From IMG/VR virus record IMGVR_UViG_3300035429_000172, positions 2,905-66,904 of that record: a DNA stretch of 64,000 nucleotides; one strand, given 5' to 3'. The position numbers and the translations under genes were made by a program. Below are positions 12,486 through 25,485 of this stretch, one piece after another. The DNA is from a virus. Taxonomy: Duplodnaviria; Caudoviricetes. The notes beneath the pieces are model-generated. The model ran no database searches. It saw only the letters and a list, made by a program, of their open reading frames with translations, and was not told where the DNA came from. Numbering within the stretch: position 1 is the first letter of the stretch; each line of letters opens with the position of its first letter.

Positions 12486-13277
12486 ATGCTATCAGAAGAC
12501 GAGATTAAATATAAGAAATTAGAAAATTTGAAGTGTGAACTCTTTAATGACAATTTTGAGAATTTTAAAAGGTATGGCATCCCCAAGGCACAATTAATCA
12601 TTGCAGATATCCCCTATAACATTGGAAATAATGCATATGCATCTAATCCAATGTGGTACAAAGGGGGCGAAATAAGCAATGGAGAAAGCAAGTTAGCTAA
12701 TAGCAATTTCTTTAATAGGGATGAAGGATTTAATGTAATCAACTTTATGAAGTTTGCTAGAAAAATGTTAATTAAAGAGCCTAAAGAATCTGGAAAAGCA
12801 CCAGCTATGATTGTGTTCTGTTCTTGGCAACAAATGCCGATGTTAGAAGCACAGGCGAAAAAAGAAGGATTTAATCACTGTTTCCCACTATTCTTTATCA
12901 AAAAAACTAGCTCGCAAGTTTTGAAAGCTAACATGCGAATTGTAGGCGCAACAGAATTTGCGGCAGTGTTTTATCGAGACAAGCTCCCGAAATTTAATAA
13001 TGATGGTCATATGGTTTTAGATCATATGAATTGGGAAATAGATCCTGGTTATCCGAAAATACATCCTACTCAGAAACCAATTCCTGTATTAAAAAAGTTA
13101 ATAAACCTCTTCACTGATCCTGGAGATGTAGTAATCGATCCAACGGCAGGAAGTGGCTCTACCTTACGAGCAGCTGCCGAATTAAAACGAAATACTTATG
13201 GTTTTGAAGTAGAAAAAGCCATTTATGAAAAAGCAAAAAAGCAGATGTTAAGTCACGCAGAATTAAGTTTAGTTTAG
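12486..13277 (+). CDS. Amino-DNA methyltransferase (N6A/N4C, beta-type motif order), orphan
   Basis: DIPY catalytic motif, HPTQKP, DPTAGSGST SAM-binding motif. Confidence 0.9.
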   Translation: MLSEDEIKYKKLENLKCELFNDNFENFKRYGIPKAQLIIADIPYNIGNNAYASNPMWYKGGEISNGESKLANSNFFNRDEGFNVINFMKFARKMLIKEPKESGKAPAMIVFCSWQQMPMLEAQAKKEGFNHCFPLFFIKKTSSQVLKANMRIVGATEFAAVFYRDKLPKFNNDGHMVLDHMNWEIDPGYPKIHPTQKPIPVLKKLINLFTDPGDVVIDPTAGSGSTLRAAAELKRNTYGFEVEKAIYEKAKKQMLSHAELSLV

Positions 13278-13297
13278 AAAATATGAGGAGCAAATGA

Positions 13298-14307
13298 ATG
13301 AAAGAAAATAGAATAGATATTTCTTACGGCAATCGACTTAACGAGCAGATTGCCAAGGTAAAAAAGATGAAAAAACAACCACCTATTGATGCTTGGTCAA
13401 AAATTGAAATTGGAAAGCGTGCAATAGCGAGTGTATACAAAGAAAGTCCAGATTATTTACTGTATCGCAAAATGACGGAAGATGGTGGAGTAGTGCTAGC
13501 ACGTATGACAAACAAGTCCTCAACGAAAAATGTTGCTTATAAGGTAACGATGGATATTAAAATTACTCCAATTATCGAAGATTCAACCAACATTAGCTTT
13601 TGAGGACATAGAGATGAGAAAAGAACCGGACTTTCTAGCAATGCTGATTGTTCTAGGAATGATAGTGATAATTATGACTGTGGTTTATTGGGTGGTGTTT
13701 GTGCTATGAAAAAAATTGATTGGAACGATTTCAGATTTTATTTTATGTTGGCTGTTTCATGGACGATAATCTTAGGCGTGATATGCGGCTTTATTTATTA
13801 CTGGGTCACATCAAGTGCATGGCTTAGCTTTTGCGTTATTGTTGGACTATTAGTGCTTTGGAGTTTAATAGCTTATTTTTTAGCGAAACATGACAAAAAA
13901 TCTTAAATACACTAAAGGAGCTTGGTATCACGTGGATAGCGATGACAAGTTGACACCAATAGATTATGAAAAAGAAATTCATAAGTACTATCAGCATTGG
14001 CACAAGTATTTAAAAGCAATTGCGGTAAATAAAGACGATGACCGATAAAGAATATCTAGAAATTTATAAATATATTGAGTTAAACGATCAAATGCTGATG
14101 AAAAGTTTGATTAATTGCGATCTGCATCATGCAGCCCAAGCAATGCAAAATACTGTCGATTTGCTTAGTGTACTTGGAATATCTTCGGCAACTCCTTTAA
14201 CTGGCGTTGTGAAATTAAAACTAAGAGTAGATGAACTACTAAACAAAATGACTAGCGAACGTGCTTTATATAACTATGTAATTAAGAAAGATGAGGAAGA
14301 AAAATAA
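13298..14307 (+). CDS. Small hypothetical and membrane proteins (13298-13603, hydrophobic ORF ending 13906, 14038-14307)
   Basis: Coupled ORFs; transmembrane character of the ORF ending 13906. Confidence 0.55.
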
Positions 14308-22918: not shown

Positions 22919-23347
22919 TTGAATGCGTCACAAACCACTGTTTCTTTTGTTATTCCAGGACAGCCAGTAGGGCAAGGTAGACCGAGATTTACTACTAGAG
23001 GACGATATCCACATGCTGTTGACCCACCAAAATCACGGCAGTATAAAAATCTAGTGAAAAAACTTGCATATGATGCTTATCAGGGAGAACCGTTAGATGG
23101 GCCTATAAAAATTAAATTGATTCATTATTTTGAAATTCCCAAGAGTTATTCCAAAAAAAGAAAAAAGGCTTGTTTAGAAGGTACAGAAAGACCAACTAAA
23201 AAGCCAGATATCGATAATGTTTATAAAGGAATTGCTGATGCAATGAGTGGAATAATTTATCAGGACGATAAGCAGATAGTAGAAGATATGCAGGAGCAAT
23301 GGTATAGTTTAACGCCTTGTGTTAAAGTTGAGGTAATGCAAATATAA
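22919..23347 (+). CDS. rusA: RusA-family Holliday junction resolvase
   Basis: VGQGRPRF, KKPDIDNVYKGIADAMSGIIYQDDKQIV. Confidence 0.9.
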   Translation: MNASQTTVSFVIPGQPVGQGRPRFTTRGRYPHAVDPPKSRQYKNLVKKLAYDAYQGEPLDGPIKIKLIHYFEIPKSYSKKRKKACLEGTERPTKKPDIDNVYKGIADAMSGIIYQDDKQIVEDMQEQWYSLTPCVKVEVMQI

Positions 23348-23391: not shown

Positions 23392-23401
23392 AAAAATTCG
23401 C

Positions 23402-23430
23402 TTGTGACCATTTTAAAAACTACATATCAT
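23402..23430 (+). promoter_or_regulatory. Putative sigma-A promoter for the ncRNA cluster
   Basis: TTGTGA-N17-TATCAT. Confidence 0.5.
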
Positions 23431-23478
23431 AGAATATGTCCTAATAAAGAAGACATTTGACACAGTCCACATATTCTG

Positions 23479-23543
23479 TAGCCACCTTTTTATTTTTATA
23501 AGGAAAAAGCTAAAAGTAAAGGTTCGATTCCTTTAGTGGCTAT
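23479..23543 (+). ncRNA. tRNA top-half mimic 1
   Basis: Acceptor TAGCCAC/GTGGCTA, T arm TAAAGG-TTCGATT-CCTTTA, one middle arm CTTTT/AAAAG, no D arm or anticodon. Confidence 0.65.
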
Positions 23544-23746
23544 TGCCAGTTACTGGCAAATTTTCTCGAAGGTTTTTTGATCTGCTTTAGTACAGACGCA
23601 ACTAAGGCTTTGGAAATAATCAAATGCATATTTAAAAAGTGTAAGCAAATTCGTCTTATTTTTTGAAAAAGTGTCAGTGCATTTGATTGTCTTGGCGCAA
23701 TTGGATTTTTGATTTTAACCAATATATAGTTTGCAAATCTAATTGC

Positions 23747-23847
23747 TAAGTGAATAAGGGATAGCAAAAAATCATATTGAATTATTTATTTCGGTCAGAA
23801 TATTTTTACATCCGCTATCCTGGTGGTTCGACTCCACGTTCACTTAT
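23747..23847 (+). ncRNA. tRNA top-half mimic 2
   Basis: Acceptor TAAGTGAAT/GTTCACTTA, T arm GTGG-TTCGACT-CCAC, long middle arm GGATAGC/GCTATCC. Confidence 0.6.
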
Positions 23848-24024
23848 TAGGGTATGAATACAACCCTGACACTGGTTTACTAATCTTAATTGCTAATTTA
23901 GGCATAATAGGTTAATTAATTGAAGATGACGGTGTAATGCGCATCATTCCGTCAATAACGCAGAGAAAGCGAAACTCCAATTAATTGTGAAAGCGATGCT
24001 TAAGGAAAGCAGCTTTCCTGTTTG

Positions 24025-24106
24025 GGCAAAGTGGTCCAGTAGCAACGACAGCGGACTGTAAATCCGCCACCGAAAGGTTTCGCAGGTGCGAGTCCTGCCT
24101 TTGCCA
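24025..24106 (+). tRNA. tRNA-Tyr(GTA)
   Basis: GGCAAAG/CTTTGCC acceptor, GCGGA-CTGTAAA-TCCGC anticodon arm, long variable arm, GCAGG/CCTGC T stem, discriminator A. Confidence 0.9.
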
Positions 24107-24221
24107 TGAATAGCCGATGTTTGAGAGTTTAACGACTAATATAAGCAAATAAACAATTATGTGCGGTAATGGTAAATCGTACGTAAAATACCAAGTTAGT
24201 CACGAGGAAATCGTGCGTGTT

Positions 24222-24295
24222 GGCACCTTAGCTCAGTTGGTAGAGCGCTAGAGCGAAGTTCTAGGTCGTCGGTGGTTCAATTCCATCAGGTGCCA
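24222..24295 (+). tRNA. tRNA-Phe(GAA) with non-canonical anticodon loop
   Basis: GGCACCT/AGGTGCC, GCTC-AGTTGGTA-GAGC, CTAGA-GCGAAGT-TCTAG, GGTGG-TTCAATT-CCATC. Confidence 0.75.
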
Positions 24296-24442
24296 TTTAT
24301 ATTAATGGGCTATTGCTTACGATAAAAGATCGATCCGCTAGTAGCGCTTAAATAGTGGACCCCAATAAGAGCAACACTTTTACAAGTTAGTGACGGATCA
24401 TTACACAGCCATGGAGTGCAAATGGCGAGGATAAACTTGTGG

Positions 24443-24501
24443 TGCGTATGTTGGTACTCACGAAAATATAGTGAGGCAAGGTTCGACTCCTTGATACGCA
24501 A
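24443..24501 (+). ncRNA. tRNA top-half mimic 3 (59 nt, no D arm)
   Basis: TGCGTAT/ATACGCA acceptor, GTTGGTA linker, CTCAC-GAAAATATA-GTGAG arm, CAAGG-TTCGACT-CCTTG T arm. Confidence 0.75.
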
Positions 24502-24503
24502 TT

Positions 24504-25061
24504 TGTGTGAAGCTGGTGCATAAGGGACTGATAATCCTTCCAGCAATACTTCTTATAAAAACCTGGTGAACGTATTTGAGGGATACCGCAAATATTTTCT
24601 AGTCCAAAACGTAGTTGTTAGAGGGCATTGTGAAAGAAAGCAATCTAGGTTAGAAGCAAGGGCAACACACAGGAAACTAAAAACAAATACCGTGTGGCAA
24701 TCGAATAAATTCCGAACCTGCGTTGAATGATAGCAGGTGTAGGGACTCTAGTTAATATTGACTTTCTCTTAGTTAATAGAACCAAAAGAGTGTTAGAGAA
24801 TAAGATTGTAGCACCTTGATGCTGGGATAAAAACCAGCTATAAGCACACGAGTATTGTACAAGTAGCTCAAATGGTGCAATTTGATTATTACAAAATACA
24901 GAAAATCGTATTTCGAGTGAACGTTGAGTGGGATTGGTCCACGTCCTAGCTTATAAAACGTATATCAGCTTACAGGTCGCTCCTGTAAGTACGAGATATA
25001 TTGCTAGTAGTTTTAATATAGTCCTTGTGAAAGTTGCCGAGGTCCTAATAAGACCCACACA
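24504..25061 (+). ncRNA. Large structured RNA, ROOL-like (~560 nt)
   Basis: No ORF; closing TGTGTG/CACACA; helices ACCTGC/GCAGGT, GCTGG/CCAGC (twice), CTTACAGG/CCTGTAAG; blocks ATACCGCAAATATT, TCCGAACCTG, GTACAAGTAGC, GTTGAGTGGG, GTGAAAGTTG resemble ROOL as remembered; size and tRNA/prophage context fit. Confidence 0.7.
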
Positions 25062-25065
25062 TTTT

Positions 25066-25197
25066 TAGGGAATGACGAAATGGTCGTAATAGTTTTATAT
25101 ATTAATTTGCTATTTTTGTACGAAAATTTGCTAATACCAAGAGATACTCATAAATATTAACACTATAACTATTCTAGTTCGATTCTAGCATTTTCTA
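25066..25197 (+). ncRNA. tRNA-like element 4 with large insertion in place of the anticodon loop
   Basis: TAGGGAATG/CATTTTCTA acceptor, ACGA-AATGG-TCGT D-like arm, AATAGTT/AACTATT stem around about 70 nt, CTAG-TTCGATT-CTAG T arm. Confidence 0.6.
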
Positions 25198-25304
25198 TAC
25201 GTAGTGCCGTGACCCATTATTTTTCAATTTAAGTATCAGAGCTGCTTAAATTGACTATCTATTTTCAGACTGCTTTTTTTGTAGGTAGGATGGTAGCCTG
25301 CGGT

Positions 25305-25374
25305 AGATATTTAGTTCAAGTAGAACACCGCCATACATTCACCGGAGATATAGGTGCAATTCCTATGATATCTA
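25305..25374 (+). pseudogene. Degenerate tRNA
   Basis: AGATATT/GATATCT, GTTC-AAGTA-GAAC, ATAGG-TGCAATT-CCTAT; anticodon stem keeps only CCG/CGG. Confidence 0.65.
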
Positions 25375-25485
25375 TATAGCCTAAACTAAAAGGCTGTAAC
25401 CTTACAATTCAAATTCAATCATTACTAGTCTTGCGTCCAGATTCCCTTTCTTCTGGTCGCTTTTCTTTTATGGAGGAAAGAACAT

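Follow-up and report, generated by a model that had tools for sequence, protein, structure and literature searches.

Non-decoding tRNA-like elements abut both ends of a ROOL RNA in a Lactobacillus-type prophage and are putative processing signals

Few non-coding RNAs of bacteria and phages are as large as ROOL and GOLLD, and the cage structures of both were determined in 2025. The window analyzed here, a 64,000-nt (64-kb) stretch of an IMG/VR virus record assigned to the Caudoviricetes, appears to be a Lactobacillus-type prophage carrying a giant ROOL RNA, which by its family would be cage-forming. An Rfam covariance search placed the RF03087 match at 24488–25074 on the + strand (130.4 bits vs. 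a gathering score of 99.1, model positions 1–574), and the ROOL motifs GTACAAGTAGC and GGTCGCTCC were both found in it. The RNA is closed by helix P1, in which TGTGTG (24504–24509) pairs with CACACA (25056–25061) at a base-pair probability of ~0.8. For other ROOL members, homo-oligomeric cage assembly has been seen by cryo-EM (PMC12286853; PMC12990946).

The ROOL RNA lies within an array of RNA elements at about 23400–25400. The only + strand sigma-70-like match near the array, TTGTGA-17-TATCAT at 23402–23430, is a consensus match only (9/12) in a region where such matches are not more numerous than in shuffles, and could be where a polycistronic, RNA-only transcript begins. It is followed on the same strand by mimic 1 (23481–23542; acceptor GCCAC/GTGGC, T arm AAAGG-TTCGATT-CCTTT, AT-rich middle), called by ARAGORN in -mt mode at 23479–23543 and partially matched by RF00005 with 18.7 bits, and by mimic 2 (23747–23846; 9-bp acceptor, T arm GTGG-TTCGACT-CCAC; recovered by the strict scan described below), in which one long arm replaces the D and anticodon arms (dG −25.8, z −3.2). 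Two tRNAs come next, tRNA-Tyr(GTA) at 24025–24106 (+, 53 bits) and tRNA-Phe(GAA) at 24221–24296 (+, 54 bits), neither with an encoded CCA; the latter has a C at position 33 of its anticodon loop (GCGAAGT) and shows compensatory stem changes in the relative L069. Downstream of ROOL and its two flanking mimics, a further degenerate tRNA-like element at 25305–25374 (+) scores 40 bits against RF00005, is missed by ARAGORN, has a 3-bp anticodon stem with a 12-nt loop and the T loop TGCAATT, and is conserved in L096, L098, and L101. All 7/7 tRNA and tRNA-like elements of the array have a discriminator A followed by T, and CCA is not encoded in any of them. When the region was searched by BLAST against a phage collection, the near mode returned only the tRNA-Tyr of prophage Lj965, which has a Ser-Glu-Tyr-Phe tRNA island without ROOL, and the distant mode returned nothing.

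Mimic 3 (24443–24501, +, 59 nt) is a D-armless tRNA-like element recovered by folding, by the strict scan and by ARAGORN, whose D-armless (-mt) mode gave a call at exactly these positions. Its acceptor comprises 7 bp (24443–49/24494–500) and is followed by the discriminator A24501 and UUU, a 5-bp stem with a 9-nt loop occupies the middle (24457–75), and the T arm (24477–93) reads CAAGG-TTCGACT-CCTTG. Folded alone it reaches −18.5 kcal/mol (z = −2.6), with 3/200 shuffles folding equally well. No promoter was found inside it, the TATAGT at 24467–72 being without a usable −35 box. Mimic 4 (25066–25197, +, 132 nt), recovered by the strict scan and by relaxed ARAGORN, has an acceptor of 7–9 bp (25067–73/25190–96) with two G-U pairs, extendable by T25066-A25197 and G25074-C25189, then a D-like hairpin (25076–88, ACGA-AATGG-TCGT), an AT-rich variable insert of 84 nt (25089–25172), a T arm (25174–88, CTAG-TTCGATT-CTAG) whose stem of 4(5) bp includes one U-C mismatch, and the discriminator A25197. 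On its own it folds no more stably than shuffles do (z = +0.6), and the cloverleaf of the relaxed ARAGORN call (25066–25198, UUA anticodon, 61-nt insertion) is not kept in L101. Two bases (24502–03) separate mimic 3 from the closing helix and four (25062–65) separate the helix from mimic 4, compared with 107–205 nt for the other spacers of the array. The first-pass annotation had placed the end of mimic 3 at 24501, 2 nt ahead of the helix start at 24504, and the start of mimic 4 at 25066, 4 nt past the helix end at 25061, and all of these coordinates were reproduced.

Both mimics have the minimal shape of an RNase P/Z substrate, i.e., an acceptor stacked on a T stem over ~12 bp and a T loop of the type UUCRANY, with 7 + 5 bp and the loop TTCGACT in mimic 3 and 7(8) + 4(5) bp and the loop TTCGATT in mimic 4. 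Neither has the 7-nt anticodon loop on a 5-bp stem of a canonical tRNA, and in a 2.3-kb search both were passed over by standard ARAGORN and by RF00005, even at E ≤ 10; this silence and the folds bear out the earlier observation that acceptor and TTCGA T arm are kept without a usable anticodon. A strict acceptor-plus-T-arm scan gave four matches on the + strand of the window, all within 23748–25196, against 1.1 per strand expected in Markov shuffles, and the chance of matches within a few bases of both ROOL ends is of the order of 1e−8.

With 6 bp vs. the ~16-bp outer closing helix of the RF03087 model, P1 of the window ROOL lacks the long helix of its family model. The outer 14 nt (5′) and 9 nt (3′) of the RF03087 match belong to the mimics and were forced to fit the long P1 of the model, and the outer P1 positions accordingly show non-canonical pairs, likewise in L068, L103, and L104. 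Because these loci show the same, the window ROOL was kept in the family; short-P1 ROOL is a sub-type of ROOL, and P1 length is no ground for exclusion.

Roughly 60 ROOL loci were surveyed for their flanks, and in the genome samples ROOL was present in 4/61 Streptococcaceae and 2/61 Lactobacillales genomes. Most surveyed loci have their own promoter and terminator and no flanking tRNA. In this autonomous architecture both signals sit tightly around a closing helix of 20–30 bp; it is found throughout one Streptococcus-phage clade, where 5–14 nt separate the promoter end from the Rfam start and the Rfam end is followed by the terminator within 50 nt (28/28 and 26/26 loci), and was seen in other lineages too. 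The second architecture is tRNA-bracketed, with real tRNAs 1 nt upstream and 3–4 nt downstream of ROOL. These are present on both sides in L103 (Phe/Trp), L104 (Ser/Asn), L106, L109, L110, and L111 (Asn/Trp), and L108 and L112 (Ser/Met), while only the 3′ side is visible in L107 (Trp) and in L068 and L100 (Gln). The identities of the flanking tRNAs differ between lineages while the spacing stays constant, and the real tRNAs overlap the Rfam ROOL ends by 11–15 nt, the window mimics by 14 and 9 nt. In L103-type prophages no tRNA other than the flanking pair lies within 2.7 kb, and the arrangement is therefore a cassette rather than a chance spot inside a tRNA island. Nothing usable came from scanning L103 and L104 for promoters and terminators. 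P1 is short (6–7 bp) in every tRNA-bracketed ROOL, compared with 20–30 bp in the ten lineages without an abutting tRNA (duplex dG −28 to −48 in nine of them, the exception being L090 with 21 pairs but only −9.7 kcal/mol).

The window ROOL has this tRNA-bracketed geometry, with non-decoding mimics at the tRNA positions. The first-pass annotation had proposed that ROOL loci be surveyed for flanking mimics, and the outcome is divided: real tRNAs occupy the homologous sites in other lineages, and most loci have neither. tRNA punctuation is thus not general to ROOL but lineage-specific. In the ROOL tree, whose deep branches are unresolved, the three tRNA-bracketed lineages form no supported clade (AU p = 0.025, 3 state changes). 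This test suffers from long branches and from a grouping chosen with the tree already in view, and no claim on the number of origins is attached to it. Three chance IMG/VR matches to the pattern GGGATACC..GTACAAGTAGC (L093–L095) were tried as ROOL and rejected by the covariance model. When candidate ancestor tRNAs were sought for the mimics, agreement reached at most 16/24 stem positions, with tRNA-Trp and tRNA-Asn of the L103/L104 type as the best candidates, ~1.7–2.7 sd above the mean. A similarity of the mimics to the tRNA-Gln of L068 plus its trailer was also seen and is suggestive only.

Within the window lineage, six sequences that are 97–99% identical were compared (the window, L069, L096, L098, L099, and L101), and mimic 3 is conserved in all five relatives. 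No acceptor or T-stem pair of the mimics is broken by any substitution in this set: C24499T in the mimic 3 acceptor keeps its pair as G-U, and G25069A, carried by four relatives, turns a G-U pair of the mimic 4 acceptor into A-U. These are two one-sided, pair-preserving changes, and double compensatory changes number zero among these close relatives. Variable columns amount to 21/86 (24%) in the insert of mimic 4 vs. 3/48 (6%) in its tRNA-like parts (Fisher p = 0.009) and vs. 29/568 in ROOL (p = 1e−7), the insert changing five times faster than ROOL. Such a pattern would fit selection for the processing shape, judged from few substitutions in very close relatives. Alternatively, the mimics could be decaying pseudogenes of ancestral flanking tRNAs, any cleavage being a leftover without selection. 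The real tRNAs at homologous positions in other ROOL lineages are in line with such decay, as are the three more degenerate tRNA-like elements of the same array and the weak stems of mimic 4 with their G-U pairs and mismatch, and purifying selection cannot be proven from relatives this close. We nevertheless consider decay unlikely, given that each of four separate elements has kept acceptor and T arm, with anticodon regions that were replaced or vary strongly, that both acceptor-stem substitutions preserve pairing, and that the window ROOL, with a P1 of 6 bp, has no promoter or terminator of its own in the 2–5 nt available. The short P1 and the missing signals point to processing at or near the mimics as the probable source of the ROOL ends.

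The mimics are probably processing signals at which host tRNA-processing enzymes free ROOL from one precursor, as suggested by the arrangement of the locus and its homologs. The array (~23400–25400) would be made as a single transcript comprising tRNAs, tRNA-like elements, and ROOL; a terminator-like hairpin at 23543–59, which separates the candidate promoter from the remainder of the array, counts against this single-precursor model. Mimics 3 and 4 would keep only what tRNA-end-processing enzymes measure, namely the 12-bp acceptor/T stack, the canonical T loop, and a discriminator A then U without CCA. RNase P is proposed to cut before 24443, at the 5′ end of mimic 3, and RNase Z after A24501, leaving the ROOL 5′ end at ~24502; endonuclease cleavage followed by exonuclease trimming, as for CCA-less Firmicutes tRNAs, would give the same end. 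A second RNase P cut at 25066/25067 would leave the 3′ end at ~25065–66. The predicted mature RNA (24502–25065, +, 564 nt; 2-nt 5′ overhang and 4-nt U-rich 3′ overhang) would be sealed by the 6-bp closing helix with overhangs of 2–5 nt, and its cage assembly is presumed to be as in other ROOLs. The mimics themselves would descend from real flanking tRNAs, with decoding lost and the processing shape retained. In loci whose flanking tRNAs are functional, established tRNA biology demands that ROOL be released by RNase P and 3′-end maturation. The earlier proposal that the mimics serve processing thereby gains comparative support from the homologous real tRNAs, the constant spacing, and the short P1.

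Two further readings were weighed against processing at the mimics. In one, the flanks stay on, either as tRNA-like domains displayed on the cage or paired as a long discontinuous stalk that replaces the long P1 and could itself be cut by a double-strand nuclease, as happens in rRNA operons. The MFE structure of a 781-nt precursor does pair 24488–94 with 25065–71 and 24443–49 with ATACGTA (25197–25203), and an engineered ROOL with a 3′ pre-tRNA still forms cages with radial cargo, according to the summary of Ling et al. given in PMC12515178. Retained flanks are nonetheless highly improbable in our judgment: G25069A, present in 4/6 sequences, would break the alternative extended-P1 (stalk) pair C24490-G25069 and strengthens the acceptor of mimic 4, real tRNAs arranged in this way need release to function, and the MFE mis-folds the real L103/L104 flanking tRNAs too. 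In the full-precursor partition function the acceptor stems of the mimics likewise reach only P ~0.01, a value that was discarded as evidence because 3/5 real flanking tRNAs in L103 and L104 score equally low, which makes the test uninformative. In the other reading, the mimics are functional small RNAs, i.e., decoys or substrates in tRNA-targeting defence by the host or in RNA repair/CCA addition by phage enzymes, or molecules that the ROOL cage carries or partners with, so that adjacency reflects a shared function. An odd tRNA-Phe with C33 in the array, anticodon-arm-less tRNA-like RNAs conserved in a second ROOL lineage (L068:2478-2539, L100:885-946, 54 bits), and the published speculation that cages might hold phage tRNAs (PMC12286853) agree with it. 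We find it very unlikely as a substitute for processing, since it leaves unexplained the 1–5 nt abutment, the interchangeable identities of the flanking tRNAs, and the link to a short P1; it is also compatible with a processing role, as released mimics could have a second life, like mascRNA.

In L. salivarius, the ROOL promoter lies 225–450 nt upstream of the RACE-mapped 5′ end (PMC5643018), and ROOL can therefore be a processed RNA. These mapped ends cannot test the present model, because the ROOL region of L. salivarius pMP118 (L074) gave no RF03087 detection and showed no flanking T-loop or tRNA. For the family as a whole, it seems to us an evenly balanced possibility that maturation follows two interchangeable routes, one with promoter, terminator, and a long helix, the other as tRNA-ROOL-tRNA with RNase P/Z, and that dedicated mimics evolved in the window lineage.

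tRNA punctuation of polycistronic transcripts was reportedly described in animal mitochondria by Ojala, Montoya, and Attardi in 1981, and the spacer tRNAs of bacterial rRNA operons are also a case of it. There, RNase P and RNase Z cuts at intervening tRNAs release the neighbours, as we infer for the L103-type cassettes; unlike there, ROOL is a 564-nt phage ncRNA of a cage-forming family, and mimics take the place of tRNAs as marks in the window. Plant mitochondrial t-elements and the tRNA-like structures of MALAT1 (mascRNA) and MEN-beta, said to have been described by Forner in 2007, Wilusz in 2008, and Sunwoo in 2009, are likewise non-decoding tRNA shapes with acceptor and T arm, and theirs are RNase P/Z sites that end the adjacent long RNA. 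They are, however, eukaryotic or organellar and mark one end, whereas the phage RNA in the window is bracketed on both sides, with putative cleavage, by a mimic without D arm and another with an 84-nt insert. In the tRNA cluster of phage T4, the stable RNAs species 1 and 2 are co-processed with tRNAs by host enzymes, so that both loci are phage RNA-only operons with non-tRNA stable RNAs maturing beside tRNAs (in the window, as proposed); the T4 RNAs, in contrast, are small and of unknown fold, and we know of no report of tRNA mimics around a large structured RNA in that cluster.

The ROOL/GOLLD literature describes these RNAs as 'often near tRNA islands', states that they 'could be co-transcribed', and reports tRNAs embedded in GOLLD linkers (PMC5737381; PMC12286853; PMC12990946). 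In the same three papers there is no nucleotide-level abutment, tRNA-ROOL-tRNA cassette, inverse relation with P1 length, or non-decoding mimic, and no link of ROOL to RNase P or Z. The first-pass annotation did not know the mechanism as described for ROOL, and our literature search found no paper describing it. In the engineered ROOL of Ling et al. 2025, as summarised in PMC12515178, a suppressor pre-tRNA was fused at the 3′ end and was compatible with cage assembly; the natural loci have the same layout, with the tRNA precursor directly at the ROOL end, on both ends, while that construct is artificial. The mimic-bracketed ROOL would appear to be a known principle, that of tRNA punctuation, t-elements, and mascRNA, in a new variant.

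If this is true, the window would hold a bacterial/phage counterpart of plant t-elements and mascRNA, and a phage would be shown to use non-decoding tRNA-shaped processing signals, a principle whose known cases to date are mostly organellar or from lncRNAs of eukaryotes. The maturation model predicts native ROOL termini, knowledge of importance in designing constructs for structural and functional work, and, if true, it would explain in concrete terms why ROOL, and perhaps GOLLD too, has long been noted beside tRNA genes.

The full RF03087 model matched the window at 24488–25074 on the + strand (Rfam, 130.4 bits), and the closing helix of this ROOL RNA, P1, was found to consist of just six pairs (24504–09 with 25056–61, pair probability about 0.8). 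At its two ends the match includes 14 and 9 bases of flank sequence, forced into the long outer helix of the model, where they form many non-canonical pairs. Folded alone (dG −18.5 kcal/mol, z = −2.6), mimic 3 (24443–24501), which ends 2 nt before P1, forms an acceptor of 7 bp, a T arm CAAGG-TTCGACT-CCTTG and, between them, a 5-bp stem closed by a 9-nt loop; ARAGORN in D-armless mode called it with identical boundaries (24443–24501). Mimic 4 (25066–25197) starts 4 nt after P1. Its acceptor of 7–9 bp contains two G-U pairs and is followed by a D-like hairpin, an AT-rich insert of 84 nt and the T arm CTAG-TTCGATT-CTAG; the folding energy by itself is unremarkable (z = +0.6). Under relaxed settings ARAGORN takes the element for a tRNA(UUA) carrying an insertion of 61 nt, and the anticodon stem of this reading is mutated in L101, a close relative of the window. 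Neither mimic was called as a tRNA by RF00005 or standard ARAGORN. The first-pass annotation had described two non-decoding elements that keep acceptor and T arm and closely bracket ROOL, and both their architecture and their coordinates were reproduced. A strict acceptor-plus-T-arm scan of the + strand of the 64-kb window gave four matches, all within 23748–25196, with 1.1 expected per strand. The tRNA-like bracketing of ROOL is real and non-random.

The source record is a 66.9-kb IMG/VR provirus, in which the 2-kb array stretch, free of credible ORFs, is flanked by a RusA gene (22919–23347, Pfam 2.9e−36) and by a run of small ORFs of unknown type from about 25486. The array starts with two tRNA top-half look-alikes, mimic 1 (23481–23542) and mimic 2 (23747–23846; 9-bp acceptor, z = −3.2), followed by tRNA-Tyr (24025–24106, Rfam), tRNA-Phe (24221–24296, Rfam), the mimic-ROOL-mimic block and a degenerate tRNA (25305–25374; RF00005, 40 bits with permissive filters), all on the + strand. 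Each of the seven tRNA or tRNA-like elements lacks an encoded CCA and has a T after its discriminator A; the spacers measure 107–205 nt, except for the 2- and 4-nt gaps at ROOL, and other released small RNAs may lie within them. The degenerate tRNA, missed by ARAGORN, has a 3-bp anticodon stem, a 12-nt loop and the T loop TGCAATT, and is kept in three relatives (L096, L098, L101; 35–40 bits). The tRNA-Phe carries the anticodon loop GCGAAGT, with C instead of U at position 33, and seems to be under selection, as compensatory stem changes were found in the relative L069 in the same alignment as the mimics. Between the window and the related Lactobacillus johnsonii prophage Lj965, the tRNA-Tyr genes share 95% identity. 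The Ser-Glu-Tyr-Phe tRNA island of Lj965 (12822–13397) contains neither ROOL nor mimics, so that the mimic-ROOL-mimic block looks like a separable module inserted after tRNA-Phe.

Both mimics occur at the same positions in five relatives with 97–99% identity (L069, L096, L098, L099, L101), and no change among these lineage sequences breaks an acceptor or T-stem pair. C24499T (three sequences) converts the mimic 3 acceptor pair G24444-C24499 to G-U. In mimic 4, G25069A (four sequences) converts an acceptor G-U to A-U, and T25184C falls within the T loop. The anticodon-like stem of mimic 3 loses its closing pair in L101 through C24461A. Variable columns are concentrated in the mimic 4 insert (21/86) compared with its tRNA-like parts (3/48; Fisher p = 0.009) and with ROOL (29/568; p = 1e−7). 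This sparse but directional variation is the pattern expected from selection on the processing half alone, although the small number of events makes it no more than suggestive. The main rival, in which the mimics are inert pseudogenes and any cleavage is incidental, appears unlikely to us, and a role as small RNAs or decoys with an independent function still less probable.

Flanking domains that stay attached without cleavage, or a stalk formed by pairing of the two flanks, are likewise minor alternatives. For the 781-nt precursor, the partition function does prefer flank-to-flank pairing, including a third ATACGTA copy at 25197–25203, with the mimic acceptor stems at P about 0.01; however, 3/5 real flanking tRNAs of the tRNA-bracketed loci L103 and L104 scored equally low (0.00–0.02), so the calculation is non-discriminating for the mimics. 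G25069A would also disrupt C24490-G25069 of an alternative extended-P1 pairing. The ATACGTA copy starts at the mimic 4 discriminator and repeats the 3′ acceptor strand of mimic 3 (ATACGCA in the window, ATACGTA in L096, L098 and L099). Its potential pairing with the 5′ strand of mimic 3 (24443–49), seen in the precursor MFE, would give a possible long-range helix around the entire mimic-ROOL-mimic unit.

About 60 ROOL loci were surveyed, obtained from an IMG/VR motif scan (36 records, 36/36 confirmed by covariance model), scans of genomes and metagenomes, unbiased searches with the covariance model in 61 Streptococcaceae and 61 Lactobacillales genomes, and a 20-mer specific to one lineage. The loci fall into two architectures: one bracketed by tRNAs, with both mimics in the window and the five close relatives and real tRNAs at the same spots in L103, L104 and L106–L112, and an autonomous one with a promoter and terminator. 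In the autonomous architecture, typified by a ~37-kb Streptococcus phage/prophage clade, an extended −10 promoter ends 5–14 nt before the Rfam start (28/28 loci) and a hairpin with T-run follows ≤50 nt past the Rfam end (26/26); L090, L091, L102 and L105 show this same layout. Jumbo-phage ROOLs (L066, L067, L070–L073; contigs of about 100–130 kb) run straight into a terminator and are preceded by a suppressor tRNA (anticodon CUA) that ends 70–76 nt upstream. In the tRNA-bracketed architecture (L103, L104, L106–L112), ROOL lies between two bona fide tRNAs (≤73 bits; in L107 only the 3′ side is visible), the sole tRNAs within 2.7 kb, whose identities differ among phages (Phe/Trp, Ser/Asn, Asn/Trp, Ser/Met) while the spacing stays constant: discriminator, 1 nt and P1 TTGTGC at the 5′ side, P1 GCACAA, TTAA and tRNA at the 3′ side. 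The flanking tRNAs extend 11–15 nt into the Rfam ROOL match, as the window mimics do (14 and 9 nt). A conserved hairpin, GCTGG-ACGGTAAAA-CCAGC, stands 3–4 nt before the tRNA preceding ROOL (~5–25 nt upstream of it) in L106 and L108–L112. In a second ROOL lineage (L068, L100), a real tRNA-Gln begins 3 nt past P1, and upstream in L068 only a T-arm-like hairpin (GGGGG-TTGGATT-CCCTC) is left at the place of the mimic 3 T arm. The tRNA array downstream in this lineage conserves a 62-nt tRNA-like RNA that lacks an anticodon arm but retains the acceptor and the D and T arms (L068:2478–2539, L100:885–946; 54 bits on the tRNA model). Just downstream of another ROOL, a weak RAGATH-36 match (L064:2124–2297; 37.6 bits against a gathering score of 70) is separated from a tRNA array by T-arm-like motifs. 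In the ROOL tree the tRNA-bracketed lineages do not form one supported clade (AU p = 0.025); as branches are long, deep branching is open and the grouping is post hoc, we make no claim of independent origins.

For a tRNA in a transcript to function, RNase P must cut the 5′ end of a downstream tRNA, and the 3′ end of an upstream CCA-less tRNA needs maturation, reportedly by RNase Z in Firmicutes (Pellegrini et al. 2003). By this established biology, ROOL would be cut free wherever its flanking tRNAs are functional. Mimics 3 and 4 are probably tRNA-derived, non-decoding RNase P/Z signals, cuts at which would define the ROOL ends inside a polycistronic precursor. Among candidate parent tRNAs, the best agreed with a mimic at 16/24 stem positions (tRNA-Trp and tRNA-Asn of the L103/L104 type), about 1.7–2.7 sd above the mean, and neither mimic was assigned to a particular ancestor.

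P1 length tracks architecture. RNAduplex on both ends gave 20–30 pairs in all ROOLs without an abutting tRNA, with −28 to −48 kcal/mol in 9/10 lineages (L090 has 21 pairs yet just −9.7 kcal/mol), vs. a core helix of 6–7 bp in all tRNA-bracketed ROOLs, including that of the window.

tRNA-shaped processing signals are a known principle, as in mitochondria, plant t-elements and MALAT1. The location of ROOL near tRNA islands or within tRNA arrays has been repeated after Weinberg et al. by Kretsch et al. 2025 and a 2026 review. The 520-nt ROOL of L. salivarius was mapped by circular RACE with a promoter 225–450 nt upstream (Cousin et al. 2017, PMC5643018), which implies processing. Its locus has no flanking tRNA-like element; this region (pMP118, 178186–179024) gave no RF03087 match even at E ≤ 1, so the Rfam model misses a divergent, structurally confirmed member. 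According to a commentary on Ling et al. (PMC12515178), the cage is undisturbed when a pre-tRNA has been engineered onto the 3′ end of ROOL. In agreement with the first-pass annotation, which knew of no such mechanism, neither a tie of ROOL to RNase P or Z nor a description of flanking mimics was found in the literature searched, and the application of this principle to ROOL appears undescribed, as do the tRNA-ROOL-tRNA cassette and the P1-length link. The link of P1 length with architecture fits a simple rule that ROOL ends must be set close to P1, at most a few bases away: transcription start and stop plus a long clamp would do this in one architecture, cuts by tRNA processing in the other.
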